Below, in pieces: positions 1-60,155 of a DNA stretch of 64,000 nt. A model generated the notes under the pieces. The model had not been told where the DNA came from. It worked only from the letters and a program-made list of their open reading frames with translations, and ran no database searches. Position 1 is the stretch's first letter. The number at the start of each line of letters is the position of its first letter. Location of the stretch: positions 1 to 64,000 of IMG/VR virus record IMGVR_UViG_3300024493_000235. The stretch is one strand, 5' to 3'. Source of the stretch: a virus. Taxonomy: Duplodnaviria; Caudoviricetes. The position numbers and the translations under genes are program-made.

Positions 1-133
1 TACCTACATTAGCTGAATAGCATGTATTAATAGCATATTATATCAAGAATATCTGCAAAAATCAGCATACAATATATTTTTAGTGCCGTGGAACATTTGT
101 GTAAATAACATCTTATACAAGGAGGCGCCGAAA

Positions 134-1720
134 ATGAAATGGCATAAAATACCTTGGCCTGCAGTTTTTTCTTTTATGTCACAAGAAACCATTTTAAATG
201 GCGTCTGCCGGCAGCATTTAGCTCATTTTTCGAAAAGTTTGTTTAAAACAAAATTTCTTAACAATAAAAGACAAATAGAATCTATGTATAGAGGCAAACA
301 GTATATGTCACCGCATAAAATGCCAGCAGTATTTTTAGGATACGAAATCGACGATAATTCAAAAAATACACAGATGACTTCTTCTTTTCCATACGAATCG
401 GGTGCGCATTTTATAGCTGGTCCTCTTTCTACATATTATTACAGGATATATTCGAACCCAAAAACAAAAGCAACCATATTTGCAAACTTCATCCGTAAAA
501 AATTTACGGTACATGTACGATACGTATTTCCAGACAGATATCAACAGGATGATTTTTATAATTATCTTATAAATACTTTTCCGTATGAAGGCCCTGGAAT
601 AAAATTTAATGTTGATTCAAGAATATGGGCTCCGCTTCCCACAAACATGATCGAATATCTGGCTGTTATGCACGGATATAATTTGGCAGATCCAGCCTTC
701 GGCAAAAGACTCATTCGGGAAATGGAAGAATACTCCTCCGGTATCATTATGAGAAAGAGTGTAAACCTACAAAATAAGACAGCAATGTTTTTCTTTTGTT
801 ACAAAGATCCTTTAATGAAAATAATGCAACCTGAAAGACCAGAAAGAGACGATGGAGAACAAGTTGGACAAATAATGACTCGTTTCGGAATAACCGAAAC
901 GCTTGTATTTGAGCCGCATATTCCAACGATGTTTGTTACAAACGTTCCAGAGATTATTTTTAACAGAAAGGTTCCATCAGAATACAGACCTCAAACATTC
1001 GGAGGTTATGATATCGATCCAAGAAAATTTAACACTCGTTGTATGGACATTCCTACAATTATAAAATCTTCTTTGGATGAAAATGGTATAATTATCACAT
1101 CAGAAGAATTTGGTGTTGCAAAAGACGGAAAAGAAGTGATAAATCTTTTTGAGTTGATTTCCGCAGAGCATATAACTGTGCTTCAAATGATGTTAGATAG
1201 GTGCATCCCTCCATATCTGCGTGGGGAAACTGTTAACGGCATTATTTTACATCATAAATGCAGAATCGATACAAGAAGCGATCTTCCTACAACAGGAGTT
1301 GAATCCGGAGATTTGTATTACATCAAAGATGAAGGAATTTATGTGTATGCAAAAGTCAATAGTGATACAACTATTGAATGGGTGTATCACATTCCAAAGG
1401 TAACTTTCGAAATGATCGAGTATTTTATGGCTACAGCATCCAGTGCATACAAAATCGTAGTCTTTGGTTTTGGTACACAGTTAAAATATGGCATCGACTA
1501 TATCTTCGATTGGTATACAGGTGAGCTTATCATTTTCAATGCATCATCTGATGTAATGTATCGAATGCAAATCATTCGCAATAAAGCTCTCACCGATGCT
1601 TTTCTCAAGAACTTGCATATTCACGATGATAAAGTCTATCGGTCTGATATCACATACACCGTGAAATTAAATATAAACGGGATAATGTCTAATATACATG
1701 GAGGAGATAATGGCAATTAG
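134..1720 (+). CDS. Hypothetical protein, probably virion structural (baseplate/tail region)
   Basis: Long ORF; start moved to ATG 134 after AAGGAGG; late-type motif at 92-103; contains a DLPTTGVESGDLYYI tail-fibre-like motif; coupled to the downstream fibre genes. Confidence 0.55.
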   Translation: MKWHKIPWPAVFSFMSQETILNGVCRQHLAHFSKSLFKTKFLNNKRQIESMYRGKQYMSPHKMPAVFLGYEIDDNSKNTQMTSSFPYESGAHFIAGPLSTYYYRIYSNPKTKATIFANFIRKKFTVHVRYVFPDRYQQDDFYNYLINTFPYEGPGIKFNVDSRIWAPLPTNMIEYLAVMHGYNLADPAFGKRLIREMEEYSSGIIMRKSVNLQNKTAMFFFCYKDPLMKIMQPERPERDDGEQVGQIMTRFGITETLVFEPHIPTMFVTNVPEIIFNRKVPSEYRPQTFGGYDIDPRKFNTRCMDIPTIIKSSLDENGIIITSEEFGVAKDGKEVINLFELISAEHITVLQMMLDRCIPPYLRGETVNGIILHHKCRIDTRSDLPTTGVESGDLYYIKDEGIYVYAKVNSDTTIEWVYHIPKVTFEMIEYFMATASSAYKIVVFGFGTQLKYGIDYIFDWYTGELIIFNASSDVMYRMQIIRNKALTDAFLKNLHIHDDKVYRSDITYTVKLNINGIMSNIHGGDNGN

Positions 1721-6782: not shown

Positions 6783-6794
6783 CAACAATGAGAT

Positions 6795-6829
6795 ACCCTT
6801 GTGGGAAAACTCCCACAAGGGTTATTTTT
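6795..6829 (+). terminator. Intrinsic terminator-like hairpin
   Basis: ACCCTTGTGGGA-AAAC-TCCCACAAGGGT followed by T-rich tract. Confidence 0.7.
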
Positions 6830-7360: not shown

Positions 7361-7370
7361 CACAATAAAT

Positions 7371-7412
7371 AAGACTCTAGGAATATTCCTAGAGTCTTAA
7401 ACTTTCTTTTTT
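7371..7412 (+). terminator. Intrinsic terminator
   Basis: AAGACTCTAGGAA-TA-TTCCTAGAGTCTT inverted repeat plus T-tract. Confidence 0.7.
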
Positions 7413-7464
7413 GTTTATATGACAAACATCAGGATAATTCTAATCTTTTAACAAGGAGAAAATC

Positions 7465-8403
7465 ATGTTAAAATTTGCATATGGGGAACCTGAAAATAAA
7501 GATATATCTATTATCAATGTGGACACAGGAGAGCCTGAGTATCAGCTTCCATGGGTATTAAGAGAGCAACTTCCTGATGGAAATATAGATGTCTCTGTTG
7601 ATAAAGAAGGTATTTGGAAAGTTGTTGATTCATCTGGAAAAATATTGTTTCATAGCGAAACTAAACCAAAAGTATCAATACAAAATTCTGCATCTTTTTT
7701 ATCAGGACTAGCTTCCGGTTCCACATACCTTAGTGCACAAGGAAAGCATGCGTTTATAGATGTCACATCTCCTGCTACTGTAACAGGCCTTAAACATATC
7801 GCAGGGAATGCGTCTATAAGTCTATCTTCATTGTCAATTCCAGATGGCGCAGTTCTTGTAATAGATTCTGGAGTGCATATTATTCTGTCTTCGTTATCAC
7901 AGCTTAATATTTCCGGTACTCTTATACTAAGAGGCGGATCAAGATTCACAGTGGATGATATAGCACCAAGCTCACTAATTATGACAAGAATGACAGGATC
8001 TGGAAAAATGATAAACTTCTCCGGTTCTGCTTTTGATGACGATATTTTTATATCCAACAGGGTTGATATTTCATCGAATTCTATTCTTATAACAGGAACT
8101 ATGTGTCTATTAAATGATCGTGTAATAAATTGCGACATTTCGTTTGCGGAGAATGGACAACTTATACTTGGAAAAGGTGTAAATCTCACAGTTGGCGGTG
8201 CTGGAATTCTGAATACAGATACTGGGGATATTTTAGGTGAACGTGGTAGTACTACTAAAATAACCATGTTATCTGGAAGTACAATTACAAAAGACACCGA
8301 TAACGGACTTAAAAAAGGAACTATTGGCGCTCCAGTTGAAGATGGTGGAACAGCTCCTCCCGCAAGTTATACATGGAATCAATCTACAAAAAAATGGGCT
8401 TAA
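7465..8403 (+). CDS. Hypothetical protein with beta-helix-like C-terminal half
   Basis: Gly/Ile/Leu/Ser beta-solenoid periodicity (IPDGAVLVIDSGVHIIL..LNISGTLIL); RBS AAGGAG; late-type motif 7425-7436. Confidence 0.5.
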   Translation: MLKFAYGEPENKDISIINVDTGEPEYQLPWVLREQLPDGNIDVSVDKEGIWKVVDSSGKILFHSETKPKVSIQNSASFLSGLASGSTYLSAQGKHAFIDVTSPATVTGLKHIAGNASISLSSLSIPDGAVLVIDSGVHIILSSLSQLNISGTLILRGGSRFTVDDIAPSSLIMTRMTGSGKMINFSGSAFDDDIFISNRVDISSNSILITGTMCLLNDRVINCDISFAENGQLILGKGVNLTVGGAGILNTDTGDILGERGSTTKITMLSGSTITKDTDNGLKKGTIGAPVEDGGTAPPASYTWNQSTKKWA

Positions 8404-8443: not shown

Positions 8444-9718
8444 TTATAGCAAATCCTTTTTCTTGAGATCCTTAAGATACATTGTCATAAGAGATTCCTT
8501 ATTATTAATAAGGTCGACAATCTTTTCAACCCCAAGGTCTTTTAAAATTCCAGAAGCCGTATTTGAAAGAATAGACACTATCGGGTTTACTATAACTAAA
8601 TTTTCCCTAAGTCTTTTTCTTATAATACGATGAGTTAAAGTATTGCAGCCAGTTCCTTCCAAAAACATGTTAAAGAGTACCACGTGTTCAGGAGTTCTAG
8701 GATATGTTTCCCAGTATAACCCTTTTTTACGTTCAGGAAGAAATATGTTAATCTCTCCTATTGTAAAGTTATACTTAACCCCAAATTCCCGGCATCCTTT
8801 CTCTCCATATCCCGAAGTATCAATATCGTGCTTTTTTAATGTCGAAAGTAATACCATAGGCTCATAATGTTCTTTGCCATATATTAAGATCTTTTTAAGT
8901 TCTTTGTACCTGTTTGCACAAGTCCACTCAAGACCTTTTACTTCGGCGCATTTATTGAACACATATTGAGCGCATCTTGTGGCACCTTTTTGAGTGCAAC
9001 TTTGTAAAACACCGGCTCCTTTACCTGAAACTGGAGATATATTAAATTCCCTACACATCCATTCTACGATAGTGACATAATCTTTTCTGATCATTTCACT
9101 TAATGGATAGAAATTCTGATGATCTGCCCTACCTCCAAGTTTTGCAAGTCCTTGTAATGTGCCTAATAACACTGGTTCCGGTATAACAAGTAGAGAGTTT
9201 ATTTTATCGAGGATTTGATTTTTTGCGCTTTTTATAGAATCCGCAGCACCTTTGTCTAATGCTCTAACTGTATTATCCATTTTCTTAACTGCGGTCTTTT
9301 TTGTCTTTTCCCATTGCTTTTCAATAGCTTTTTGAGGATCTGTTATTACATCAAGTTTTTTATCAAGTTTAGTATTTCCTGTCTTTGCAGTTTCTAAACC
9401 TTCCATAGATTTTCCGAAGTTACTTGCAGCACTTGATGTTTTTGGAAAAGCTTTTTCAGGATTTGTTGATAATAAATTTTTTGTAGGTCCTGATGAATAT
9501 TTAGAAAGTGCTGATTCTTTTCCTGAATCTGCTTTTGAAGTCGTTGCTGTAGATGATCCTGTAAACCTAGGAGAATCATCTACATTTTGCCAAAGTTGTG
9601 TTGGAGCATCTATTCCTCTCCATGCTTTTGTACTTGGATCGTAATGGACTTCAGTTTGATATGGCGTTCGAACTACATTTGCAGAACCGGATTCTGATCC
9701 TTCGGATTCTATACCCAT
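8444..9718 (-). CDS. Hypothetical protein
   Basis: 424-aa ORF, Ser/Thr/Lys-rich N-terminus; late-type motif 9775-9786 upstream. Confidence 0.7.
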   Translation of the reverse strand: MGIESEGSESGSANVVRTPYQTEVHYDPSTKAWRGIDAPTQLWQNVDDSPRFTGSSTATTSKADSGKESALSKYSSGPTKNLLSTNPEKAFPKTSSAASNFGKSMEGLETAKTGNTKLDKKLDVITDPQKAIEKQWEKTKKTAVKKMDNTVRALDKGAADSIKSAKNQILDKINSLLVIPEPVLLGTLQGLAKLGGRADHQNFYPLSEMIRKDYVTIVEWMCREFNISPVSGKGAGVLQSCTQKGATRCAQYVFNKCAEVKGLEWTCANRYKELKKILIYGKEHYEPMVLLSTLKKHDIDTSGYGEKGCREFGVKYNFTIGEINIFLPERKKGLYWETYPRTPEHVVLFNMFLEGTGCNTLTHRIIRKRLRENLVIVNPIVSILSNTASGILKDLGVEKIVDLINNKESLMTMYLKDLKKKDLL

Positions 9719-9797
9719 ATTTATTTCCTTCTTAGTACAAAAAAATAACAGGTAATCGTTTTAGAACTACCTGTTATTTACATGTTTTCACGCCTTT

Positions 9798-13125: not shown

Positions 13126-13185
13126 ACAACCTCCATTCTTCTACTATGATTATATATACATATAATCATAATTGAGATTTTATTT

Positions 13186-13497
13186 TTACTGCTTAAAAAC
13201 GAGTACCTGAACAACCTTATCAAGGTCGAGAAAATGCATCATCGGCATTTGTGGGCCTTGCTGAGTTTGAATATTTTGGGAATACTTAAGGGTATTCGTA
13301 TCCTCATCAATTGTCCACGGTTCAGGAATTTCAACACCTTCTTGAGGTTTAGGAGGTTTTCCATCCAGTGACAATGCCGTAGTAAATATAATGTCCCTTC
13401 CGTCGTTTAACTTAAGACCGTAAAGATATCGTTTATCTGGTTTTCCGTTCTCTTTTGGAAAAGTATCGATAATTTTCTTTATATTTGTGAGTGTCAT
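13186..13497 (-). CDS. Small protein homologous to a domain of 21076-21945
   Basis: YLYGLKLNDGRDIIF..W.IDEDTNTL..GPQ...HFLDLDKVVQVLVF matches FIYGFKVTDGKDVIF..WKVNRDANSI..GPQ...HYLDIDKITEVMVF; late-type motif 13529-13540. Confidence 0.7.
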   Translation of the reverse strand: MTLTNIKKIIDTFPKENGKPDKRYLYGLKLNDGRDIIFTTALSLDGKPPKPQEGVEIPEPWTIDEDTNTLKYSQNIQTQQGPQMPMMHFLDLDKVVQVLVFKQ

Positions 13498-13568
13498 AGC
13501 ATTTTCTCCTTATAAAATGATTGAACTTTATCAAGATGTTTTGGGCTATAATTTATAAAAAATAAAGA

Positions 13569-21945: not shown

Positions 21946-22075
21946 TTTTCTACCACCTTTTTACGGCTTTATATTGATGTTTTTTACATGCTAAGATAAC
22001 CTTTACAACATAGAAATAGCCCAGAATCTTAAACAAATTTATGGGTATATATCATTTATAACAAGGAGAACTATC

Positions 22076-32751: not shown

Positions 32752-32823
32752 TATGTACTCCTTTTTATATCGATGTTTTTGTATAAACATTTGGGTAAAA
32801 CTTTTATACAAAGGTGTTTTATT

Positions 32824-37095: not shown

Positions 37096-37215
37096 TTTAT
37101 TCCTCCTATCAATATGATATATAACCATATATCATTTTAACGCAGAAAGTTCTGTAAGAAAATGAATTTAACAATCATATAGACAATAGGCTATTTTAAA
37201 CAAGGAGGCGCCATC

Positions 37216-39204
37216 TTGTCAAAAAAGGTAAAAGAGAAAAGACCCAGTTTACTTTCCAAAGAGCAACCTTTTGTAGGGGTTGTATCTGTGAAATCTTTTA
37301 ATTACAAAAGCGAACTGTACACCAAATTGTATACGCATTTATACGGAAATACGCTTTTAGATTATACATACCGAATGAGAAAAATACAGTTTCGTTTTGA
37401 AGATGGACAGCTTGTAACAACCCGTGTTCGTACAGCCATCATTAACCTTATCTTTTGGAAACCGTATATCGATTCAAAACGAACAATCCCTTCTACTGCA
37501 ATGTTTGATACAAATACTATCTGTGAAGATACGATAGCTAAAAAGCTCGACGAAATCATAATGGAATTTAAGCCGTATATGACAATCGAAGAGTTGAGTA
37601 AAACCGAAATGCATATCGTAGAATCTCTTGCAACGATTTCAAAGAACTTTTGTATTATTCAAGGAAACACAATCGATGTAAGGGATATAATAGATCTTGC
37701 AAACAAGAATCCTCGCTTTGATGAACTTATTCACACAGAGTATCCTGATACTATGCCGATGGCGGATATTGAAAAAGATATCATGCTTCGTACAGAAGAA
37801 GCAAGAGATATAATCATAAACGATCATATATCAAACATACGGCCATTCTTAAACGCTGGCGGAAATGTGAATATGGGACAGATGTCTCAATGCTTGATAT
37901 CCATAGGACCAAGATCCGATATATATGGCAATATATCCCCTGTAATTGTTAACACGAATTTTATTCGTGGACTTCGTAATGTATCGGATTATTACCTTGA
38001 ATCATACTCTGCACGTAAAGCCCTTATTGCAAATAAATATGCAATGAGCGATTCAGGATACACGGCAAGACAAATGGATCTTCTTGGAATAGATGCAACG
38101 CTCGTCGACATCGAAGATTGTGGAAGTAATCATGTAATGGAAGTCGAAGTTACAAACAAGAAAGTACTTAATATGCTTCGATATAAATATTACGTGTCTG
38201 CAAAGAAGAGAGATGGAACCTATAAATATACCGAAATAGTTCCAGAGAAACACGGGGATTTAATCGGTAAGATAATATTAGTTCGCACACATGTATTGTG
38301 CAATCTTCCCGAAGGTCAATATTGCAAGAAGTGTTATGGAGAACTCGCATATTTTAATTTAGGATATCACACAAATCTTCTTGCTATGCACGCGCTGTCG
38401 GAACCTGTAGGGCAGATGGTACTTTCTACGAAACACTTAACTAAAACTCGCACTAAAGCTGTTGAATGGCCTGAAATACTATACAAATATTTCCGCTGTG
38501 AAACCGATGCGATATATCCGAAAACTGAGATATGTAACGGACAATTTGAAATCGCATTTTATACAGGGGATGTCGAAGAATATCTTAATATGTTTGAATC
38601 TAACTCTAGTGATGACGATGAAGACTCTTCTGATGGCATTCTACTCGATTATGTATCTCGTTTTGAACTTCATATAAACGGGGAAGCTATCGTATTCGAT
38701 GTTGGAGAAAATGAGCTTTATATAAATAATGAATTTTTATTAAAGCTTGTAAAATCTAATAAAGTCGAAGATGAAAAAATCTTTGTAAGCTTCTCTGGAA
38801 TTGCGGACGATTCTCCTATTTTTGATCTTAACATCGAAAACATCGAAATCACGGCATACTTAAAAAGAGTACAACGTCTTATCGGTATTAAGAACAAAAC
38901 AGTTCCACAAACAATCGAAAGCATTATAAAGCAGCTTATCGATATTATAAATGAGCTTAATATTCCGATGAACTTCGCGCATATTGAATCTATTGTGTAT
39001 AACATGGTGCGAGATCCTGCGATGCCGATACATAGGCCTAAAAATATAGGAGATCCGTATATAATCGTTCCGACATGTACGGCTATAACAATGTCAAGAA
39101 GTCTTTCAACGAGTCTTTCGTTCGAAAGAATTGGGGAGGCCCTTCGCAATACATATACATACATGAAAAACGGGCACCACTTTATGGACTCTTTTTACAA
39201 ATAA
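37216..39204 (+). CDS. rpoC: Phage multisubunit RNA polymerase beta-prime C-terminal subunit (probably non-virion RNAP)
   Basis: Bridge-helix SARKAL...SDSGYTARQ, DCGS, Zn site LCN....YCKKCYG, trigger-loop SEPVGQMVLSTKH, AHIE. Confidence 0.88.
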   Translation: MSKKVKEKRPSLLSKEQPFVGVVSVKSFNYKSELYTKLYTHLYGNTLLDYTYRMRKIQFRFEDGQLVTTRVRTAIINLIFWKPYIDSKRTIPSTAMFDTNTICEDTIAKKLDEIIMEFKPYMTIEELSKTEMHIVESLATISKNFCIIQGNTIDVRDIIDLANKNPRFDELIHTEYPDTMPMADIEKDIMLRTEEARDIIINDHISNIRPFLNAGGNVNMGQMSQCLISIGPRSDIYGNISPVIVNTNFIRGLRNVSDYYLESYSARKALIANKYAMSDSGYTARQMDLLGIDATLVDIEDCGSNHVMEVEVTNKKVLNMLRYKYYVSAKKRDGTYKYTEIVPEKHGDLIGKIILVRTHVLCNLPEGQYCKKCYGELAYFNLGYHTNLLAMHALSEPVGQMVLSTKHLTKTRTKAVEWPEILYKYFRCETDAIYPKTEICNGQFEIAFYTGDVEEYLNMFESNSSDDDEDSSDGILLDYVSRFELHINGEAIVFDVGENELYINNEFLLKLVKSNKVEDEKIFVSFSGIADDSPIFDLNIENIEITAYLKRVQRLIGIKNKTVPQTIESIIKQLIDIINELNIPMNFAHIESIVYNMVRDPAMPIHRPKNIGDPYIIVPTCTAITMSRSLSTSLSFERIGEALRNTYTYMKNGHHFMDSFYK

Positions 39205-42462: not shown

Positions 42463-42504
42463 AAACATAAAGATAAGTATATATCATACAAACAGGAGAT
42501 TATC

Positions 42505-42936: not shown

Positions 42937-43019
42937 AAATAATATGCAAGGCCATTATGGCCTTGCATATTTTATGTGTAAAGATAGGCTAACATGGAAA
43001 TAAACAAAAAGGAGCTATT

Positions 43020-43148
43020 GTGGTAAATGTGCTTATATCAGGTTTTATTTTACTGGCAGCGTTAGTCTTACTTGTGTATCCCGTTTGTAATAATAAATGG
43101 TTTGATGCAAAAGCTGACATTAAAAATGAACCTCAAGGAGAAGAATGA
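43020..43148 (+). CDS. 42-aa single-TM peptide (not in ORF track)
   Basis: GTG start after AAGGAG; MVNVLISGFILLAALVLLVYPVCNNKWF..; ATGA overlap with the polymerase gene. Confidence 0.5.
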   Translation: MVNVLISGFILLAALVLLVYPVCNNKWFDAKADIKNEPQGEE

Positions 43149-48213: not shown

Positions 48214-48581
48214 CTATATAGGGCGATTTTCGCCCTATTTTTTGTTTAAAACAAAGAAAAATTAGATTATACATATTGGATTTATTCAAAGGATTTGTGG
48301 AACCAATATCAAGATGAACTCACAATATCCCAATTGCGGTATAGGGATAATTGGAATAATCCAACTATTCAGAGAACAATCGATTATGCTATATACTGCT
48401 GGGAAAACAGAGAGAAATTATTCGGATAAAGTACGCAATTACTGACGCGCCGCTTTATGCGGCGCTCAGTTTTTATTTGTTTTCCTGTACATAATAAAGG
48501 TAGTAATGCATTCTATGGGTTATTTTATTTTTTTTGGCCGTTTTTAACATCTTTATAAACTCGTATAACAAGAGGTGAATC

Positions 48582-50171
48582 ATGATTCTTGATATTATGG
48601 ATGTCGATAAATTTGTAGCAACCAATTATTTACAAGAAGTGACATCCAATTTATATTTTGATGATGCAGGAAATCCCGATCCTGATGGACTTCTCTCCAT
48701 CAGAATTTTTGGGCCTCCTGGAAGCCCAGAAAGAAAACTACGTATGGCATATATAGATTTAAAGCATCAATATTTACATCCGCATGTATACACAATATTG
48801 ACCCAAATGGACAAAAAAATGGGATCTCTTATATCCGGGTCAAAATACTTTAAATTCGATGATAAAACTAAGTTCTTCGTAGAAGCTTCCGATGACGATC
48901 CTGCATCCGGTACTGGACTTGATTTTTTGTATCTTCATTGGGATAACCTATTCTTTAAAAGAACCGGTTCGATGAAAAGAGAAAACAGACTTCATATGTT
49001 ATCTTTACTTAAAAAGAACGAAGTTTTTATTACAAAACAGGTTATAATTCCAGCTTTCTTTAGAGATATGACTGGAAACCGTGATAAAATAAATCCTATT
49101 AATACTCTTTATAAACAGCTTTTTAATGGTGTGAGTGTATTAAAAACCCTTGGTACAACAAATTTTACATACAATTTATCCAGAGCCGGGGTACAACTAA
49201 CAATCAATAAAATATTTGATTATTTTATGGATCTTCTTAAATTAAAAGAAGGATTCTTACAAGCATCTGTTATGTCAAAATCTATTGATTATGGCGTACG
49301 TACCCTTATTACAGCTCCAACATTTTCAGCAAATTCTTGGAAGGATATGCCTGCAGATTATGAGCATATTGCAGTTCCACTTGTACAATGTATATCAGAA
49401 TTTACGATAGCAATTATTACATGGATTGAACAATGGGTAAATTCGATTGTCCAAGGAAGGGTTAATATGTACATTTGGGATACAGCAGAACAAAAAGCTG
49501 TGTTAAAAAACCTTTCAGAAGATTGGAAAAGTGATTTCTCGTCAGAAGCAATTGAGAAAAAAATATACGAATTTGCTATGACACCAGAGATGCGGTTTTA
49601 TCCTGTCACAATAAAATTTGAAAACGAAGAGCGAAAACCGTTTGCATTTATATCAGATAACAAAGACCTTGTAATGGAATCCGGAACAATCGATCCTGAA
49701 AAAATGAAAAAAATCCGATATTACACATGGACGGATGTTTTTTTCTTAGCCGCAATGGAGTGTGCAGCAGATATGGCAATCTATACAACACGATATCCCG
49801 TAACAACTCATCACAGTCAATATTTTGCAAAGTGTCGAGTTCGCTCTACATTTAGGACAATGGAAATGCTCATAGGTGGAACAAAGTATACAAATTATCC
49901 TGTTGTGGATATTACAGCTCCGACAGATACAATCGAATCGATGTTCATAGATTCTCTTGAGTTATTTCCGCCATATATCGGAACTCTTGGTGCCGACCAT
50001 GATGGGGATCAAGTTTGTTGTAGGGGATTGTATTCCTATGAAGCGAATAAATGGGTTGACCAGTATGTATCTTCTCCCGCAAATGCTATCGGTATGGATG
50101 GAGGATCTGTTAGAACTTCTGGAGATGTTGGAACCCATACATTGTATAATCTTCTGCGAAATCCCGATTAA
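48582..50171 (+). CDS. rpoC: Phage RNA polymerase beta-prime N-terminal/catalytic subunit (probably virion RNAP)
   Basis: PDGLLSIRIFGP, RMAYIDL, SKSIDYGVR, TRYP, catalytic LGADHDGDQ; late-type motif 48546-48557. Confidence 0.88.
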   Translation: MILDIMDVDKFVATNYLQEVTSNLYFDDAGNPDPDGLLSIRIFGPPGSPERKLRMAYIDLKHQYLHPHVYTILTQMDKKMGSLISGSKYFKFDDKTKFFVEASDDDPASGTGLDFLYLHWDNLFFKRTGSMKRENRLHMLSLLKKNEVFITKQVIIPAFFRDMTGNRDKINPINTLYKQLFNGVSVLKTLGTTNFTYNLSRAGVQLTINKIFDYFMDLLKLKEGFLQASVMSKSIDYGVRTLITAPTFSANSWKDMPADYEHIAVPLVQCISEFTIAIITWIEQWVNSIVQGRVNMYIWDTAEQKAVLKNLSEDWKSDFSSEAIEKKIYEFAMTPEMRFYPVTIKFENEERKPFAFISDNKDLVMESGTIDPEKMKKIRYYTWTDVFFLAAMECAADMAIYTTRYPVTTHHSQYFAKCRVRSTFRTMEMLIGGTKYTNYPVVDITAPTDTIESMFIDSLELFPPYIGTLGADHDGDQVCCRGLYSYEANKWVDQYVSSPANAIGMDGGSVRTSGDVGTHTLYNLLRNPD

Positions 50172-51619: not shown

Positions 51620-52639
51620 TCACTCCGTATAGCACAATTGGGCTATATCTATCGGAATGTTACGGAAGATATTTTCATTGAGCTTTTCGATAGAATAATC
51701 GATGTTATCAACATGCCAAAGTATCATATAATTATCTAATTCTTTAGCATGATTTTGTAACTGCAAAGACATTGAAAGCCGTTCGAATTCTTTTGTAAGG
51801 CCACACATTTTATACAGACCTTCACAATCGATAGTGGAGCATGTTCCATCCCTTATACATGCAAAGATATTTTTCTTTGCATCTCTTATATTCTCCACAT
51901 GCTCAAATTTTGATTTCTTCGGATATATCAGTAGCCCTGATAAGAATAGGTCTATAAATAAAAACCTTATAGCATATGCTCTATTAAGGTCTTGTAAGTG
52001 TTTGTCTTTAAAAAGCCAGTCTGTTATAATCGTATGCTCTGTAAAAAGGCCTTTTCCAAGACCAAGTCTGTTTATACTGTAACGAATTTTGCTTTCATAT
52101 TGTAGTTGGCATACGGTATAATCCAGCGCATTATTTGATACAAGAAGTACAAATAACGGACAAGACTTTTTCTTTTGGATGTGCAGTTGCACATTATAGG
52201 ATATACTGACATAATCCGGCATATCCTTAGTATGTATATAATATACTTTAGGTATAAATATACATATCTGTGGAAGTAAAGTATCAAGAGCTTCATTTAT
52301 GGCCTTCTCGTATTTAGGATTTCCGTATTCAAGCGCTTTATCGCCCCTGTAGAAATAAATATTGGCGTGTCTTCTTGCTTTTCTAAAGTGAATCGCAATC
52401 TCAAGAATACATGCAACTATATATTCCTTAGTTAGATATGGTGAGCTTTTATCGTATGATTTTAATAGGGATTCCCATGTGCGAAATATTCCGTAGACAG
52501 AGATATAGATATGGATATCTCCCTTATTTTTTTCTTTTGGAAGAACCTGATCTATCATCTCGTATTTCGTCATTAGGCATGTACAGGCCACTTTAAACAA
52601 GTTAGCCTGGGTACGGTCGTCTTCCTTATGAAAGTACAT
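51620..52639 (-). CDS. Hypothetical protein (possibly degenerate 5'-3' nuclease fold)
   Basis: Start moved to 52639 (AAGGAG RBS); IHIYISV..AIHFR..IYFY topology. Confidence 0.5.
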   Translation of the reverse strand: MYFHKEDDRTQANLFKVACTCLMTKYEMIDQVLPKEKNKGDIHIYISVYGIFRTWESLLKSYDKSSPYLTKEYIVACILEIAIHFRKARRHANIYFYRGDKALEYGNPKYEKAINEALDTLLPQICIFIPKVYYIHTKDMPDYVSISYNVQLHIQKKKSCPLFVLLVSNNALDYTVCQLQYESKIRYSINRLGLGKGLFTEHTIITDWLFKDKHLQDLNRAYAIRFLFIDLFLSGLLIYPKKSKFEHVENIRDAKKNIFACIRDGTCSTIDCEGLYKMCGLTKEFERLSMSLQLQNHAKELDNYMILWHVDNIDYSIEKLNENIFRNIPIDIAQLCYTE

Positions 52640-52692: not shown

Positions 52693-52710
52693 CTATTAAC
52701 ATGTTAATAG
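52693..52710. promoter_or_regulatory. Palindromic bidirectional late-type promoter
   Basis: CTATTAACATGTTAATAG reads AACA-TGTTAA-TA on both strands, between divergent genes. Confidence 0.65.
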
Positions 52711-52744
52711 AGCAAGTTATATTGAAATAACAAGAGGTATTTTT

Positions 52745-53587
52745 ATGGTATATACACTTGAAGATGTCTTAAATCCAAAGGACATGCATCCGGCCACGAA
52801 AAATATAGTTTTGCAGGCATATTCACAAAGATATAGTGTACTTCGAGGCAGAATTTTGTGGGCATGTTGTCAATACAAAACGTCATATTTTATACATATG
52901 AGAATCCCTTCGGAAAGTCCATATTGTACAAAGATATGGTATGATGTCGTATTTGAATTTTATCCTTTATCAGACTCTGATATAACAGCGGGAACTTTAA
53001 AAAATTATGGAGTTAAAGCATATTCAAATTATCCACCGTTTTTATTTTCATTTACATATGTGTATAATAAACATAATTTACTTATTCCGTGGCTTAAAAC
53101 AAAGTGTTCAAAGAAAGCACTTTTTGATGCCCCTGTAAAAACAAACCCGCACCAAGTGTTAGGTTCCGATATTAAAATGTGGTTTGCGATGTATCACATT
53201 AAAATGATAGGCCTTACAGATAAACGAAAGTTCAAGATAATGATTAATACATCTATAGGGCATATTGCGAAAGTTGTACTGTCACAGGAAACCATGCTTG
53301 TTTTAAGAACAAGAGCTGAAAGGTTTGGAAAAGAAACTGTGAAAGCTCAAGCTAAACAAAAGGCAAAACGAGCTGATTACAATAACAGACAAAGACTTGA
53401 AAAAGCCGCTATAAAAGGTATTGAAAGTCATCTTCGAAAAGAAGCTAACAGAACGGGAGAGCATATTGGATATACGCATACCATGGCGAAAAATCTTGTG
53501 AAGTTAGCTAAGAGTGCAAAAACGGCAAGGGTCATAAACAGAGCGAGAAGTCCAAAGCAATCAAGACAAGCTCGTAGACCTAAGTGA
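52745..53587 (+). CDS. Jumbo-phage hypothetical protein with basic C-terminal tail
   Basis: 280 aa; RIPSES..YDVVFEF..YSNYPPFLFSFTYVY; K/R-rich tail. Confidence 0.65.
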   Translation: MVYTLEDVLNPKDMHPATKNIVLQAYSQRYSVLRGRILWACCQYKTSYFIHMRIPSESPYCTKIWYDVVFEFYPLSDSDITAGTLKNYGVKAYSNYPPFLFSFTYVYNKHNLLIPWLKTKCSKKALFDAPVKTNPHQVLGSDIKMWFAMYHIKMIGLTDKRKFKIMINTSIGHIAKVVLSQETMLVLRTRAERFGKETVKAQAKQKAKRADYNNRQRLEKAAIKGIESHLRKEANRTGEHIGYTHTMAKNLVKLAKSAKTARVINRARSPKQSRQARRPK

Positions 53588-53669: not shown

Positions 53670-55235
53670 TTGAAAAAGATTAAGCCTACATTCTCTAATT
53701 CGAAGATATTTTCAGGAGGGGTACATGTAAACTTCTCTAAGTTGTTTGAAAATAATCTTTCGGATTATGAGGACTTTGATCTTTCAGGAAAAAGAACCTA
53801 TAGCAATAATCAAGACTTAATAATCAAATCTCTTAACTCAACGATCAAACTCGACGAAGATAGTGAAATAATAACCAACTATCTTATGGTCATGCACAAA
53901 ATCATAAAACAAAGATTCAAAACCCCAGAATCTTTCGTCGACTCTGTAGCAACAGAAATTTTAAAAGACTGGTTTGTAGCGAATGTAAAAGAATGGGTTG
54001 AAAAAGAATACACTTCAAAGTGTAAATCGCTAAACCGGGAAGCTGCAGAATTTGTAAAAAGGCATGATCCTTCAGTTGTTTTTACAGACGATCATAGCAT
54101 TTTGTTATATCAGCTATCTTATCTGTTTCGTTTTGTCATTCCTCTGTGTACTCATTTTATTAAAGTGTATTCTGATATGATAAGCATGCAGGATACAAGT
54201 GAATTCTATATTGATGCCTACGGTCAGACGTATAAGAACGCGCAGGATGCTATGATACACGGGCAAAAATTATTTAATAAAACAACCTTTCTTTTGACTG
54301 TATGTCAGGTGTGTATTTGGGCTCTTACTAAAGATACTCCAAGTATGAATATTTATGGTAAGTTAAATCACTACATTACGATGATGGTTAAAGGTACTGG
54401 TTACTCCGATGCTGAAATGTGGAATAAACTTATCATGAGGAGCACAAGTAAATACAACCAAGTTGACATAATAATGGCTAAGGTACTTATTGATATTATT
54501 CCAAAAGCTTCTTTTGCCAAAAACATCATCGCTTACATTATTACAACTTGTGAAAGCCATCTTAAGTGGAGCTTCCATATGGATTTTAATATTAACTATA
54601 ATATGATAAATCCTATTTCCGAAGATTCAGACTTCTCCGACGCCGATCGTTTTGATATTAACAGTGTGAAGACCGATGAGCTTAAAAAGATACTCCAAGA
54701 TAACTTCATGGATGACACAATCGATATAATCTTTGAAAGAAAACAATTCGTTGTTGATCCGGATGAATATTCTTGGTATCTTAAGAATAATCGAGTGCAG
54801 CCAATACAAGAAATTATGATACGAAATTTCTTTTCCATACCGTTTGGAGGATATGGCAATTTAGATGGTGTAAACGAAACACAATATACAAAGCTTTTAT
54901 GCTATCTAATCCATTATCTTAAATCTAACGCACAGTTTAAAGTGCTTCCAAAAATTTTAACAGGTGTTATCGCAACTGTAAACGAGAAAAGGCTTTTATC
55001 TAGGCCCATAGAAAGGCGCATTAGAGAATCGAGCCGTTATCAGAATATTGTTTCGAAATATCGTTTTACAGGTAACGTACTACAAAAATCAAACGTCATA
55101 GAACAAACAATTATGACTATCCTTAATTCCAAGATTTTATACAACGAATGGAAGTACAGAAAAAATGGAACTGATATACAACTTTTGGTTGAAGACGTAT
55201 GCGAAGAATACCTTATGTTTTTAGAAAATTTATAA
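53670..55235 (+). CDS. Probable sigma-like promoter-specificity subunit of non-virion RNAP (AR9 gp226 / phiKZ gp68-like)
   Basis: 521 aa, all-helical; FTDDH..L..LS....VIPL..HF, N.YGKL, FGGY.NL, LPKILTG, EEYL.FL recall the gp226 family (from memory); early-type motif upstream; RNAP context. Confidence 0.55.
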   Translation: MKKIKPTFSNSKIFSGGVHVNFSKLFENNLSDYEDFDLSGKRTYSNNQDLIIKSLNSTIKLDEDSEIITNYLMVMHKIIKQRFKTPESFVDSVATEILKDWFVANVKEWVEKEYTSKCKSLNREAAEFVKRHDPSVVFTDDHSILLYQLSYLFRFVIPLCTHFIKVYSDMISMQDTSEFYIDAYGQTYKNAQDAMIHGQKLFNKTTFLLTVCQVCIWALTKDTPSMNIYGKLNHYITMMVKGTGYSDAEMWNKLIMRSTSKYNQVDIIMAKVLIDIIPKASFAKNIIAYIITTCESHLKWSFHMDFNINYNMINPISEDSDFSDADRFDINSVKTDELKKILQDNFMDDTIDIIFERKQFVVDPDEYSWYLKNNRVQPIQEIMIRNFFSIPFGGYGNLDGVNETQYTKLLCYLIHYLKSNAQFKVLPKILTGVIATVNEKRLLSRPIERRIRESSRYQNIVSKYRFTGNVLQKSNVIEQTIMTILNSKILYNEWKYRKNGTDIQLLVEDVCEEYLMFLENL

Positions 55236-55239
55236 AGAG

Positions 55240-56178: not shown

Positions 56179-56189
56179 GGAAACTTGAT

Positions 56190-56774: not shown

Positions 56775-56777
56775 AAA

Positions 56778-56809
56778 GAATTACGGAGGGCGTTTGCCCT
56801 CCGTAATTT
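56778..56809. terminator. Bidirectional terminator
   Basis: GAATTACGGAGGGC-GTTT-GCCCTCCGTAATTT. Confidence 0.75.
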
Positions 56810-56820
56810 CTTATTTTTTG

Positions 56821-59800
56821 TTACGGATGTTCTTCTTCATACTCATCGATCTTGTTCTGGACGGATGTCCATGTCGGACCTATAATAGAGTTCACCATAC
56901 GAATGATGTCCTCATCATTATCCGCTTCAAGTTCCAACTGAGTTTTTATATCCGCAAGTTTTTGCTTCATTTCCGCAAGGTTCTCTTCTGTGATTTCAAG
57001 TTCACTTATGTCTGCATCGAGAAGCTCATGGTAATCGGCTTTAAGTCTTGTTACAATGTTTTGAGCATTCTGAATCATTGTTACATACTTCGTAAGGATG
57101 TCACTCCTTCCTTGGAATGTCGCAATTGATTCAGTTATTGCGCTTGGTATCTTCGCAAAAAGCGTTTGGACCGCGGTAATCTTTTCAAGGCTGTCAATTT
57201 CGACATCCGAATCGAATGTAATATCATCAGAGAAGTCGCTCCACACCGAATCGTAGATGTCAACAATCGCATCCCGTGCTTGATTCTGATACCCAGCATT
57301 ATCAAGAATATCATCCGCAAGGTCATTTTGAATGTCTTCGAATGCGCTATACAATGACAGAGCAGCATCAAGATCCGAATTCTCAACATCATCAGCTTCG
57401 AGTTTATCGAGTATATCTTTATGCTCTTCAATGAAGGTGAGTACAGCGCATATACCATCGTAGGTATCGTTTACGTTGTCATACGCTTCTTTTACAAAGC
57501 CAAAGACCACACTATCGTTATAAACGTTTTCGTATTCGGTTTTGAAGATTTTGAGTATATCAACAACATCCGGATCCGATATATTTACAGTTTCCGGGGA
57601 ATCGAGGATACCAACTTTATACTCATCGATGAATTCCTGCGCGAGTGTCCGTTTCGGAAGATCTATCACTGCCAGAAGTCCTTCAAGAGTATCCTGCATA
57701 TCAAAGAGAATGTCGGAGATGATATCGCAGTCATTTCCGTAAATGGTTTCGGCAATCCTTTCGATAGCGGCAGTGAGTTCATTGCGGTCATCTTCCGCTA
57801 TATTGGTTTCGTCCTTTTCGAGGAGTTCTTCATAGTCGTCTTTGATGGACAGTACGGTATTAAGGGCCTGAATTATTTTCATGAAGTCTTCTTCGCTGTA
57901 ATCACTCAATTCATCTTTTACTTCCTGTGCAAGGTCGGAGAATACGTTGTGCGCTTCAATGAATTCATCACGCAACGTTTCGATATCGTCGATATTAATT
58001 GCAGGATCGTAATACCCGTCAATGATGTCAATATATTTCTTGTATTCAGCGGTGAATTGTGCGGCCTTCTCTTGCGGAGTTGGATTCGGTGTCTTAATGG
58101 AATCGAGGTACCCAAGAAGAGCCGTTAAATCGTAATATACCCCTGAAAGAATTGTTGAAGCGCCTTCATCGATAAAGTTAAGCCATTCATCAATAGCTTC
58201 GCTTATCTTGTCACGGTTGTCTTCTGTGATATCACTTTCGGTAAGGTAAACCACATCGCTGTAATCAGCAAGATATTCCTCAACGATTTCAAGAGAGTTA
58301 CGGTAACTCACTAAAGACGCATATACATCTGCAATCTCTTCCTGATCCTCTGTTGACATTTTGTGATATTCTGTAATGGCGCCTTTTACAGCAACAAGCG
58401 TATCAGATACATCTTCAAGATACAAAGTTGTGTTTCCATCAACGATATCGATTAAGTCAGCAAATGCCGAAAGGAATCCGGCAGCATCATAACCGTCATC
58501 TTCATTTCCGGGAGTAGTGCCACCACCAGGATTATCACCACCTGAATCGCCACCATTGTCTTCGCCGTTATCGCCTCCTGTATTGTCTTCCGTACTTTCG
58601 GCAATTTCTTTGAGTTCAAGAAGAACGGTGTGCTCACTTTCAAGTAAGCGTTGTACGTTGACATCAAGAAGTTCGTACCTTTCAATGGCTTCAATGATTT
58701 CATCAAGAAGATCCACGATCGTTTGCTTCTCATCATCAGCCGAAAGTGAAAATACCTCAGGATACGTATTCTTGTAATTCTTAAGAGCGATAAAAAGTCT
58801 TCTAAGGACTTTCAAGTGTTCGAGTTCGTCTTCAAGAAGTTTTTGTACTTCCTCGTCAAGACTATCGTATGCACTGAATGCATATGTGATTTGGAATCTG
58901 TCTTCACGGGTTACATTGTCAACAGTCTTGGCCAAAATACTGGCGTATGTGGTTCTGAAGGTTTGAGCAGCTTCTTCAACAGTTTCGCTGCCTATATCTT
59001 CTCCACCGGATTCATCTCCTCCAGTTCCTCCTTCGTCGGGATCACTGCCACCTCCCTCATTTCCACCGGACTCTTCATCGCCGCCACCATTACCAGTGCC
59101 ACCGCCAGGATTATCACCACCAGAATTGCCGCCGTTTTCATTCGGATCTCCTCCTCCTTCACCTTCATTCGGGTCAGTGCTGTTGTTCGGATCTTCAGGA
59201 TCAACAACAGGTTCACCACCACCGTCGCCTTCTCCGGAATTATCTTCCTCTTCTCGAAGTTCGGCCTTAAGCTCGATATCAAGAATGAAATTAATTCCGT
59301 ATTCAGGAATGTCTTCGATTTTTATATCATCAAAGACAATCTTGCAATACGGAGCGACGTTTACTATTTCGGATGTTGGATGTACTTGAGTTGTGAAAGA
59401 TATATTTTCTCCCCTGGAACCTGATGTGCTCGATACGCTGACTCTGGATCCGACATACAAGCACAATTCATTTATAACGGCTGGACTGTCAACTTTCTTA
59501 AGGTTAAATGCAGCTTGAATTTCGGATTTCGTGATATTACACACAAGATGCTGAATCTTTACAGGGATATCATCTTTATCAAGTGTGCTCATGATATTCA
59601 TTTCGATCGGGCGTTTTGCATAAAACATCCTCATCCACTGGGAGTTATGCATAAACGGCGCATACATGCGATATGCTTCGTATTTCAAAAAGGACATTTG
59701 GGCCGTACAAATCGGAATGGGATTTCCCAATCCGCCGAATAATCCGCCATAGGTGTCAATATCAGAAAATTTGGCAACTGATGGGTATTTTACAAACCTG

Positions 59801-60054
59801 TCCCATGTTACTTTATTTTCTTTATAATCTTCTGTAGTAAGATTCGCCCCATTTCCTACAGCGAATACAATTTCATTGATATTGATGTCTACTGTGTTTG
59901 GGTTATATTGAACGGCTAAATTCAATTTCTTTTCTAACGGCACTAACCATGTAGAAACGCGCTTAATTCCGAATACCGTATTGAGGTATGCATCACGACT
60001 CTGTATTTCGAGTGTGGACATCCTATCCAGGTATTTAAGAGAAAATTTGCTCAT
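56821..60054 (-). CDS. Large acidic virion protein: tail-collar-like N-domain, G/D/E/N-rich linkers, helical repeats
   Basis: FAVGNGA..INELCLY N-domain; GGNSGGDNPGGG-type linkers; repeats like AQTFRTTYASILAKTVDNVTRED; late-type motif 60086-60097. Confidence 0.55.
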   Translation of the reverse strand: MSKFSLKYLDRMSTLEIQSRDAYLNTVFGIKRVSTWLVPLEKKLNLAVQYNPNTVDININEIVFAVGNGANLTTEDYKENKVTWDRFVKYPSVAKFSDIDTYGGLFGGLGNPIPICTAQMSFLKYEAYRMYAPFMHNSQWMRMFYAKRPIEMNIMSTLDKDDIPVKIQHLVCNITKSEIQAAFNLKKVDSPAVINELCLYVGSRVSVSSTSGSRGENISFTTQVHPTSEIVNVAPYCKIVFDDIKIEDIPEYGINFILDIELKAELREEEDNSGEGDGGGEPVVDPEDPNNSTDPNEGEGGGDPNENGGNSGGDNPGGGTGNGGGDEESGGNEGGGSDPDEGGTGGDESGGEDIGSETVEEAAQTFRTTYASILAKTVDNVTREDRFQITYAFSAYDSLDEEVQKLLEDELEHLKVLRRLFIALKNYKNTYPEVFSLSADDEKQTIVDLLDEIIEAIERYELLDVNVQRLLESEHTVLLELKEIAESTEDNTGGDNGEDNGGDSGGDNPGGGTTPGNEDDGYDAAGFLSAFADLIDIVDGNTTLYLEDVSDTLVAVKGAITEYHKMSTEDQEEIADVYASLVSYRNSLEIVEEYLADYSDVVYLTESDITEDNRDKISEAIDEWLNFIDEGASTILSGVYYDLTALLGYLDSIKTPNPTPQEKAAQFTAEYKKYIDIIDGYYDPAINIDDIETLRDEFIEAHNVFSDLAQEVKDELSDYSEEDFMKIIQALNTVLSIKDDYEELLEKDETNIAEDDRNELTAAIERIAETIYGNDCDIISDILFDMQDTLEGLLAVIDLPKRTLAQEFIDEYKVGILDSPETVNISDPDVVDILKIFKTEYENVYNDSVVFGFVKEAYDNVNDTYDGICAVLTFIEEHKDILDKLEADDVENSDLDAALSLYSAFEDIQNDLADDILDNAGYQNQARDAIVDIYDSVWSDFSDDITFDSDVEIDSLEKITAVQTLFAKIPSAITESIATFQGRSDILTKYVTMIQNAQNIVTRLKADYHELLDADISELEITEENLAEMKQKLADIKTQLELEADNDEDIIRMVNSIIGPTWTSVQNKIDEYEEEHP

Positions 60055-60155
60055 ATATTCTTCTCCTTTAATAAGATAAGGTCTTTATACACATGTTTTA
60101 AGAGCCAATTCTCAATATCACTTTTACGTATATATAATAGATTTAAGGAGATAAC

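Follow-up and report, generated by a model that had tools for sequence, protein, structure and literature searches.

Putative AR9-type late promoters in an uncultured termite-gut jumbo phage with probable thymine DNA

Introduction

Does an uncultured jumbo phage carry late promoters of the type found in Bacillus phage AR9 and, if so, would its polymerase read them in uracil- or in thymine-containing DNA? To our knowledge, AR9 is so far the only jumbo phage in which a late promoter of this type has been mapped. In AR9/PBS1 it has the form 5′-A(−11)ACA-N6-T-A/G(+1), and the holoenzyme of non-virion RNA polymerase (nvRNAP) and gp226 reads it from the template strand (PMC5312081, PMC5449584, PMC9209446). 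The AR9 late promoters were mapped by dRNA-seq, and the gene g226 lies behind two early boxes (PMC5312081). The dependence of the AR9 enzyme on template uracils has hitherto been taken as the purpose of the system, namely to discriminate phage from host DNA. According to a review, sequence alone does not allow the late promoters of such phages to be predicted (PMC7598289); in Staphylococcus jumbo phages a MEME search did not find them (10.1101/2020.12.14.422802).

The stretch of DNA analysed here (the window, 64,000 nucleotides) belongs to the 268-kb genome of an uncultured giant (jumbo) phage from the termite gut. The record is about 91% complete, so that genes scored absent could sit in the missing part. 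Uracil is written as T in sequence records, and the base composition of the DNA was judged from gene content and from the gp226 recognition helix. A first-pass annotation of the window had listed 15 sites AACA-N6-TA, referred to the AR9 system, whose facts it gave correctly (PMC5312081, PMC9209446), and proposed that the phage uses the AR9 late promoter code and may have T-to-U substituted DNA. The first proposal is supported here and the second is not. Taken together, the data speak, with a probability of roughly 0.75, for AACA-N6-TA being the late promoters of the phage, read in an AR9-like manner by its nvRNAP with a gp226 homologue in thymine-containing DNA.

Distribution of the motif

All 15 listed sites exist, all are intergenic and all are oriented toward the following gene, 14 of them reading AACAT-N5-TA and one being an AACAA variant. 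One more intergenic AACAT-N5-TA (61733-61744, minus strand) raises the AACAT-type total of the window to 15. Across the whole window the bare AACA-N6-TA is not enriched (56 versus 61 ± 8 in shuffles); the signal is therefore the placement of the sites, that is, the split between intergenic and coding DNA. Fifteen of the 19 AACAT-N5-TA in the window lie in the 7.2% of the DNA that is intergenic (binomial p = 2e-14), and dinucleotide-shuffled intergenic DNA of the window contains only 1.6 ± 1.2 of them (maximum 7). The same holds for the genome, where 50 of 68 AACAT-N5-TA fall within the 8% intergenic DNA (p = 8e-40; shuffles 7.6 ± 2.7) and where 43 are oriented to a gene start at most 120 nt away, as against 0-13 for 39 letter-permuted control motifs.

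Oriented intergenic sites in the genome amount to 62 AACA-N6-TA and 7 AACA-N6-TG; with a spacer of N5 or N7 there are only 4 and 9, respectively. AR9, run through the same pipeline as positive control, gave 274 sites in total, 85 intergenic and 64 oriented (phage: 211, 78 and 62), with counts of 64 for TA, 13 for TG, 3 for N5 and 5 for N7. The phage thus matches AR9 in consensus, spacing and orientation. An early-type promoter motif, GTATATAT[A/C]AT, is also present, and the late motif, the early motif or both stand before 103 of the 147 genes whose upstream gap measures 40 nt or more.

The consensus of the late elements is a-AACAT-N5-TA-R. The T at position 5, which the first-pass annotation had considered a possible invariant extension, is a real preference with many exceptions (T46, A15, C6 and G2 in 69 oriented AACA-N6-T[A/G]), and variants such as AACAC precede true late genes, among them the portal gene; in AR9 this position is A or T. 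The base after TA is always a purine in the phage (A40 and G10 of 50; no pyrimidine). Neither the purine nor the T is kept in relatives (AACAC in L013, AACAA or AACAG in L014), and both are therefore lineage preferences rather than features of the family.

Within genes AACAT-N5-TA is depleted 3-6-fold, the sense strand having 10 copies versus 37.6 ± 6.1 and the antisense strand 5 versus 33.3 ± 4.7 in synonymous-codon shuffles. Of 1023 pentamers ranked by depletion in genes AACAT is 18th and ATGTT 11th; AACAA, AACAC and AACAG are not among the most avoided. Since controls with another spacing show a roughly 2-fold depletion in genes as well, part of the effect is due to the pentamer AACAT itself and not to the full spaced motif. 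The pentamer is strongly avoided in the genes of the phage, but not in those of AR9. The idea that the extended consensus compensates for a lost uracil discrimination was considered and rejected: outside the six fixed positions the consensus holds only about 0.9 bit more information than that of AR9, which is too little to support it.

The promoters and the genes behind them

The putative late promoter AACATTTGTGTA (92..103, plus strand) lies 30 nt 5′ of the ATG of gene 134-1720, and AACATCAGGATA (7425..7436, plus) precedes gene 7465-8403, with a terminator-like hairpin (7370-7399) upstream; no assembled transcripts or contigs carrying this late gene are on record. On the minus strand, AACATGTAAATA (9775..9786) precedes gene 8444-9718 and overlaps with its 3′ end the 5′ arm of a terminator-like hairpin (9779-9743), AACATCTTGATA (13529..13540) precedes gene 13186-13497, and AACATGTGTATA (60086..60097) precedes a gene for a protein of 1077 aa (56821-60054).

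Some of the sites are arranged divergently. AACATCAATATA (21970..21981, minus) precedes gene 21076-21945 and is paired with AACATAGAAATA (22007..22018, plus), which precedes a type II topoisomerase/GyrB-like gene (22076-24466); between this late site and the gene lies an early-type box (about 22047), the arrangement of genes called continuously expressed in AR9. AACATCGATATA (32766..32777, minus), which precedes the homologue of AR9 g242 (32008-32751), has as its divergent partner AACATTTGGGTA (32786..32797, plus), which precedes gene 32824-35124. The palindrome TATTAACATGTTAATA (52694..52709, both strands) contains two overlapping late promoters, the minus copy (52694) facing gene 51620-52639 and the plus copy (52698) facing gene 52745-53587; the plus copy is kept in relatives.

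Two plus-strand sites follow each other closely: AACATAAAGATA (42464..42475) precedes gene 42505-42936 and has an early-type box at about 42479, and AACATGGAAATA (42991..43002) lies 5′ of a short ORF and the catalytic gene of a family B DNA polymerase (43145-45112), a homologue of AR9 g152. A candidate internal late promoter, AACATTCCGATA (51650..51661, minus), absent from the first-pass list, sits within the 3′ end of gene 51620-52639, 35 nt 5′ of the ATG of gene 50212-51612.

Across the genome late sites are found 22-25 nt before three of the four virion RNA polymerase subunit genes; with the portal gene included the range is 22-27 nt, and the site of the sheath gene lies 88 nt before it. 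AACA-N6-TA is kept before the virion β′N gene (site 48546, at the orthologous position) and before the homologue of g227 in four relatives with gp226 homologues that share 47-62% identity with that of the phage, while spacer and flanks diverge. A late code under visible selection can be read straight from the phage genome, and late transcription units of uncultured jumbo phages could be annotated by this practical rule.

The polymerases and the gp226-like subunit

The phage encodes all four split nvRNAP subunits, homologues of AR9 g154, g270, g089 and g105; besides 37216-39204 their genes occupy genome positions 164936-166444, 223744-225771 and 239408-240934. The β′ C-terminal subunit (37216..39204, plus; homologue of g154) has the AACAA variant AACAATCATATA (37170..37181, plus) 34 nt 5′ of its gene and an early-type box 80 nt upstream; of the four nvRNAP subunit genes, two have early-type promoters upstream. 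The gene with the catalytic motif ADHDGD (48582..50171, plus), before which the first-pass annotation had noted a late motif, does have one, AACATCTTTATA (48546..48557, plus), 24 nt upstream. Its best match in AR9 is g145, which belongs to the virion and not to the non-virion enzyme; as β′ N-terminal subunit of the virion RNA polymerase it is a sensible late gene.

The fifth subunit, the sigma-like specificity factor, is represented by a gp226-like protein of 521 aa (53670..55235, plus), whose gene is directly preceded by early motifs only, in two boxes. It is 23.5% identical to AR9 gp226 over residues 14-451 (BLASTP, E = 4e-14); a profile of its clade matches PDB 7S01_A with E = 1.8e-19, and a Foldseek search with its AF2 model finds AR9 gp226 first (7S01_A, E = 1e-15) and phiKZ gp68 next (8QUE_B, E = 7e-7). 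The genome has no sigma-70 family gene, and matches to sigma-70-type promoters show no enrichment.

In AR9, helix 2.1bis of gp226 has the sequence D204-V-V-I-W208-T-Y, and its Val206, called absolutely conserved, excludes thymine by a steric clash (PMC9209446). The equivalent in the phage is D247-A-E-M-W251-N-K, for which the AF2 model predicts a short helix at 247-254. D247 and W251 align with D204 and W208 and are invariant in 19 sequences. Val206, Ile207 and Tyr210 are replaced by Glu (Glu249), Met and Lys, so that the protein lacks the signature of the uracil-phage subfamily: gp226 of AR9, BpSp, LPJP1, S6, SA1 and phiR1-37 has D-x-V-I-W, whereas the clade of the phage has D-x-E/D-M/I-W-x-K, with Glu or Asp at position 206 in 17 of 18 leaves. 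This clade forms a monophyletic group with a support of 0.993 in the gp226 tree, where it branches outside that of the six cultured uracil-type phages. The atom said to clash with the methyl group of thymine in AR9 is Cβ (PMC9209446), which Glu retains; the replacement therefore indicates an altered pocket rather than acceptance of T. In the gp105 homologue, R363, which in AR9 stacks on the −10 base, is conserved. In a pairwise alignment K375 of gp105 seems to be replaced, close to a gap; we do not rely on it.

Uracil or thymine

If the DNA of the phage were T-to-U substituted, with the same late promoters and with a polymerase that needs template uracils at −11 and −10 as in AR9, the promoter core identical to that of AR9 and the conserved R363 would find a simple explanation. 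The closest cultured relatives, AR9/PBS1, BpSp, LPJP1, S6 and phiR1-37, have uracil DNA, shown or presumed (PMC7598289, PMC8460666); it has been shown for AR9/PBS1, phiR1-37 and S6, is reported for BpSp in a review (PMC7598289) and is presumed for LPJP1. The phage has, moreover, neither ThyA nor ThyX, a finding that is compatible with either type of DNA.

Against uracil stands first of all a dUTPase of 160 aa (genome positions 167118-167600; PF00692, 76.5 bits), which has all five motifs and most closely matches dut and trimeric dUTPases of solved structure. The gene is intact, lies behind a late promoter and is syntenic in a relative, where it is preceded by AACATATAGTTA. An active dUTPase would destroy the dUTP pool that a phage with uracil DNA must keep, and AR9, BpSp, LPJP1, S6 and phiR1-37 indeed have none. 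A clear dUTPase is absent from all eight complete genomes with the Val signature that were scored. To search for the two gp226 types, the helix 2.1bis peptide was turned into degenerate DNA patterns. The pattern for the Glu type hit mostly short AT-rich contigs that lacked a gp226-like signature in a peptide-motif check and were left out. Two Glu-type records were scored; one IMG/VR relative (67.7 kb, 28% complete) is too fragmentary for a dUTPase call.

Other genes typical of the phages with uracil DNA were not found in the phage either. A dCMP deaminase (PF00383), present in all five cultured relatives, is absent from the genome, and tblastn revealed no homologue of the AR9 HAD deoxyribonucleotidase. 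Nor did it reveal a homologue of AR9 Ugi (gp104) at E up to 1; small DNA mimics of this kind diverge beyond recognition (PMC10303552), and this negative therefore means little. A tubulin gene is present in the phage and in none of the five cultured relatives. Together with the Glu in place of Val206 and the position of the clade outside that of the six cultured phages, the gene content makes T-to-U substituted DNA unlikely, and the phage DNA probably contains thymine. The argument that uracil DNA escapes standard metagenomics, so that the assembly of a genome itself speaks for thymine (an idea from 10.1101/2020.12.14.422802), was dropped: complete Val-type genomes of 259-268 kb have also been assembled in IMG/VR.

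Less probable still is that the promoters are as described and that some other non-canonical base alters the polymerase's view of the DNA. One candidate would be partial substitution by 2-aminoadenine via a PurZ-like gene (72442-73503), another a post-replicative modification of thymine contacted by the Glu of helix 2.1bis; an acidic residue facing C5 of the −10 pyrimidine could conceivably hydrogen-bond a polar substituent there. A ThyA-family dUMP hydroxymethylase, needed by the known 5-hmdU pathways, is missing from the phage, and nothing in the sequence requires a modification.

The −10 element of Bacillus σK and σE is CATA---TA, which CAT...TA of the motif resembles, and the sites lie where any promoter or operator might lie. 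It is nevertheless very improbable that the motif is read by the host RNA polymerase with a sporulation-type sigma factor or serves as operator for a phage DNA-binding regulator. Compared with the σK consensus, the gap between CAT and TA has one extra base, and the stretch from −24 to −1 shows nothing conserved that resembles a −35 element. The phage has a complete nvRNAP set and no sigma-70 family gene, A-A-C-A is invariant and N6 specific in agreement with the protein-DNA contacts in AR9, and in AR9 it is the nvRNAP holoenzyme that reads this motif in vitro (PMC5449584).

Proposed mechanism and relation to known systems

From homology and motif statistics we propose that a five-subunit phage nvRNAP, composed of the split β/β′ homologues and the gp226-like subunit, reads the late elements, that it would recognize the template-strand complement of AACA (−11 to −8) and that transcription would start at the A of TA. 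Early-type promoters, presumably read by the injected virion RNA polymerase, would drive synthesis of the gp226 homologue; the late promoters would then activate the virion genes, among them those for three of the four subunits of the virion RNA polymerase. As the DNA most likely contains thymine, the lineage would read T rather than U opposite the two A's, with a recognition helix carrying Glu for the thymine-excluding Val206.

The likeness to AR9 extends to the four invariant letters, the 6-nt spacer and the T-A at which transcription presumably starts (G in place of A being much rarer), to the placement before virion genes and, beside an AT-rich early box, before continuously expressed genes, and to the four split nvRNAP subunits with a gp226 homologue behind two early boxes. 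The phage differs from AR9 in having dUTPase and tubulin and in lacking dCMP deaminase and a recognizable Ugi, which points to thymine-containing DNA.

In phiKZ, the nvRNAP with gp68 reads TATG late promoters (PMC4666361, PDB 8QUE). The phage shares with phiKZ the genes for a polymerase of five subunits, the fifth being homologous in the two, that would work independently of the host, probably the thymine DNA, and the tubulin gene found in nucleus-forming phiKZ-like phages; the Pfam chimallin model has no match in its genome. It differs in its code, AACA-N6-TA and not TATG, and in its polymerase subunits, which are nearer to those of the AR9 group (β′N 272 versus 125 bits).

The AR9 holoenzyme tolerates thymine at −10 when its gp226 carries the engineered change V206G (PMC9209446). 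In the phage this residue of helix 2.1bis is changed as well, with the same AACA element and possibly likewise in T-containing DNA; the change is, however, natural, fixed in the clade and to Glu or Asp rather than Gly, and it may affect U/T discrimination. Glu249 is thus a concrete natural variant with which the gp226 pocket can be probed.

The phage's genes thus suggest that an AR9-type promoter system need not be tied to uracil: the code is common to a separate uncultured lineage with probably thymine DNA and another residue where the choice between U and T is made. At slightly better than even odds, the AR9 template-strand system has in this clade a natural form that reads thymine, with the same code, a homologous subunit and a rebuilt recognition helix, in a phage that shares a tubulin with the phiKZ-like phages. 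If so, template-strand recognition of a "−10" element would predate uracil DNA or have no link with it, the need for uracil would be a later specialization of one branch, and the strong purging of AACAT from its own genes would be the way in which the lineage limits stray initiation. The gp226-like family comprises 442 clusters at 50% identity, within which position 206 varies, and the question therefore extends well beyond one phage.

Genome and polymerase genes

The source record, of which the window forms the first 64 kb, is a single linear IMG/VR virus sequence of 268,442 bp with 36.8% G+C, about 91% complete according to CheckV; about 9% may be lacking from the record, which bears on the gene absences reported here. 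No GenBank phage is similar to it at the DNA level. By protein, judged from one RNA polymerase (RNAP) subunit, it is closest, among cultured phages, to the AR9/PBS1-like jumbo phages that infect Firmicutes (about 27-31% identity), and the phiKZ-like phages rank well behind these.

RNAP homologues were assigned by tblastn against the whole AR9 genome. The subunits of the non-virion RNAP (nvRNAP) are homologues of AR9 g154 (β'C, window 37216-39204), g270 (β'N, genome 164936-166444, with the motif DFDGD), g089 (βC, genome 223744-225771) and g105 (βN, genome 239408-240934). Virion RNAP homologues were found in the same way; the "ADHDGD" gene at 48582-50171, which the first-pass annotation had called an RNAP gene without assigning it, is indeed one and specifically encodes virion β'N (AR9 match g145).

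The homologue of gp226, the sigma-like specificity subunit of the nvRNAP (here gp226h; window 53670-55235 (+), 521 aa), is 23.5% identical to AR9 gp226 across almost its entire length (E = 4e-14), and a profile of its clade matches 7S01_A, the solved AR9 gp226 chain (E = 1.8e-19). An AlphaFold model of gp226h (mean pLDDT 76) has AR9 gp226 as best and phiKZ gp68 as second match, the structure search yielding no significant match beyond these two. No sigma-70 family gene was found in the phage genome, nor is there enrichment of sigma-70-type promoter matches.

The late motif

All 15 AACA-N6-TA sites listed in the first-pass annotation are present, intergenic and directed toward the next gene. 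Over the whole window the bare pattern is not enriched relative to shuffles (56 vs 61±8), so that it is the location of the copies which matters, and intergenic placement is enriched. On a gene map made independently in the present analysis, 15 of the 19 AACAT-N5-TA copies in the window are intergenic, intergenic DNA making up 7.2% (binomial p = 2e-14); dinucleotide-shuffled intergenic DNA of the window contains 1.6±1.2. These 15 are the 14 recorded before and one at 61733-61744 (-). Genome-wide the count is 50 of 68 (p = 8e-40; shuffles 7.6±2.7), and 43 copies point to a gene start at most 120 nt away, as compared with 0-13 for 39 letter-permuted control motifs. Shortening or lengthening the spacer by one base reduces the oriented AACA-N6-TA copies from 62 to 4-9. 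The aligned sites, a median of 29 nt from the start codon, give the consensus a-AACAT-N5-TA-R with no conservation farther upstream. The T at position 5, suspected to be invariant, proved to be only strongly preferred: AACAC and AACAA sites precede clear late genes, e.g. the portal gene.

AR9 late promoters mapped by dRNA-seq read AACA-N6-T-A/G, the final base being the start site (PMC5312081). With AR9 as positive control, the identical motif pipeline found 274 copies of AACA-N6-TA, 85 intergenic and 64 oriented, the present phage having 211, 78 and 62, respectively; spacer specificity and the bias of A over G at the presumed start are alike in both. In each of four metagenomic relatives that conserve the gene order and have gp226 homologues 47-62% identical to gp226h, the virion RNAP β'N gene and the g227 homologue are both preceded by AACA-N6-TA in the corresponding position, and spacer, flanks and fifth base vary (AACAC in L013, AACAA in L014, AACAT in L015 and L016).

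Within genes AACAT-N5-TA is found 10 times in sense orientation (37.6±6.1 in synonymous shuffles, which keep every protein and codon usage) and 5 times in antisense (33.3±4.7). Part of this depletion is avoidance of the pentamer AACAT itself: in coding regions of the whole genome AACAT is at 0.67x and its complement ATGTT at 0.73x of synonymous-shuffle expectation, ranking 18th and 11th in depletion among 1023 pentamers, and the same test finds no coding depletion of AACAA, AACAC or AACAG. AR9, unlike the present phage, does not show the AACAT/ATGTT depletion. Most of the remaining strongly depleted coding pentamers contain TAG.

A perfect palindrome, TATTAACATGTTAATA (window 52694-52709), is predicted to hold two late promoters that overlap and diverge. 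Further divergent late pairs, 20-60 nt apart, are found at window 21970/22007 and 32766/32786 and, beyond the window, at 79085/79146, 100377/100414, 153157/153192 and 254852/254900. At window 9743-9786 (-) and 6784-6822 (+) the late motif directly adjoins or overlaps a terminator-like hairpin. Transcripts derived from upstream could terminate at such hairpins; since the predicted start of the site at 9775 falls within the 5' arm of the stem, RNA initiated at that promoter could not fold into the complete hairpin. The gene at window 21076-21945 (-), behind a late promoter and adjoining the topoisomerase gene, matches with its C-terminal 110 residues PHROG families that include HNH endonuclease. 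In about 10 genes (window 122-133, 7453-7464, 22064-22075, 48568-48581, 52733-52744 and others) the ribosome-binding region is extended and reads AACAAG(G/A)..., with AACA again just 5' of the Shine-Dalgarno core; this may reflect a leader element common to these genes or simply a strong Shine-Dalgarno context.

The early-type motif and regulatory logic

A second motif, (T-rich)-GT-ATATAT[A/C]AT, is strongly enriched upstream of genes, about 20 nt before start codons, with 72 intergenic copies genome-wide; those in the window are at 13150(-), 15313(-), 22047, 25915, 26580, 29871, 37115(-), 37127, 42479, 46737, 53611, 53639, 60130 and 63675. Its box, GTATATAT[A/C]AT, resembles AR9 AAATATATATTAT, and the motif the AR9 early (virion RNAP) promoter, AAATATATATTAT-N6-G. 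Of the 147 genes whose upstream gap is 40 nt or longer, 103 are covered by the late and early-type motifs together.

The regulatory logic fits that of AR9. Late sites precede three of the four virion RNAP subunit genes at a distance of 22-25 nt, and both motifs stand before the GyrB-like gene. gp226h is preceded by two early-type boxes and lacks a late site next to it, a pattern also reported for AR9 g226 (PMC5312081). The two gp226h boxes are in inverted arrangement.

Uracil or thymine

The present system is homologous to AR9 late transcription and would work alike; the testable features that define the uracil-DNA subgroup are lacking in the present phage. Four proxies for the DNA type were used: pocket residue, dUTPase, dCMP deaminase and tubulin. 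We put the probability that the phage has thymine DNA at roughly 80%. The T-to-U substituted DNA considered in the first-pass annotation has all four against it.

The AR9 enzyme requires template-strand deoxyuridine at both -11 and -10, and the -10 base has its C5 3.9 Å from Cβ of gp226 Val206; the V206G enzyme accepts thymine, and Val206 is reported to be absolutely conserved in homologues from uracil-DNA phages (PMC9209446). In a helix alignment anchored on the invariant Asp204 and Trp208, all six cultured phages (AR9, BpSp, LPJP1, S6, SA1, phiR1-37) read D-x-V-I-W-x-Y/F. D-x-E/D-M/I-W-x-K is the reading in the present phage, which has Glu249 at the Val206 position, and in 16 of the 17 remaining members of its clade; P0121, with Ser, is the one that deviates. 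This clade is monophyletic in the 155-member gp226 family tree (support 0.993) and falls outside a clade of 39 leaves that includes all six cultured phages and has Val in 26 of its leaves. Glu retains Cβ, so the substitution alone does not predict thymine acceptance, and conservation of gp105 Arg363 is a further caveat to the thymine reading.

The gene set is ill suited to building uracil DNA, because dUTP would be hydrolysed and dC not deaminated. The genome encodes an intact trimeric-type dUTPase of 160 aa with all five motifs (genome 167118-167600, outside the window), which scores 95 bits with the dut model vs 25 bits with the dCTP deaminase model and whose top PDB matches are all dUTPases. 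The gene lies just downstream of that for nvRNAP β'N and is preceded by a predicted late promoter, AACATTTGAATA. A 197-kb relative has a 47%-identical dUTPase at the same place after nvRNAP β'N, likewise behind AACAT-N5-TA and followed by a class II ribonucleotide reductase. A dUTPase match is lacking in all five reference phages (AR9, BpSp, LPJP1, S6 and phiR1-37), and three further complete genomes with a Val-type subunit have no dUTPase or only a marginal 22.8-bit match in a 215-aa ORF. dCMP deaminase, found in all five reference phages, is absent from the present genome (about 91% complete), as are UDG, thymidylate kinase, ThyA and ThyX; AR9 Ugi and HAD deoxyribonucleotidase have no detectable homologue there. 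A tubulin-family (PhuZ-like) gene lies beyond the window, within a 401-aa ORF (genome about 187995-188180), and has no counterpart in the five reference phages; a review ties tubulin to thymine-DNA, nucleus-forming phages (PMC7598289). The Pfam chimallin model has no match in the present genome.

In the papers searched we came across neither a thymine-DNA phage with an AR9-type late promoter code nor a naturally occurring gp226 that differs at Val206. The main value of the present phage is that it provides a concrete, testable natural variant of the pocket discriminating uracil from thymine; the motif, in addition, offers annotation of late units in uncultured jumbo phages from sequence only.

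The AR9-type helix signature YSD-x-VIW-x-YL was also seen in high-G+C virus contigs (51-66% G+C; IMG/VR L021, L023, L024, L026 and L035). One high-G+C Val-type contig, 259 kb long and with terminal repeats, is a complete genome; it has no dCMP deaminase and just a marginal dUTPase/dCTP-deaminase-like match. Val-type subunits thus occur beyond the low-G+C phages of Firmicutes.
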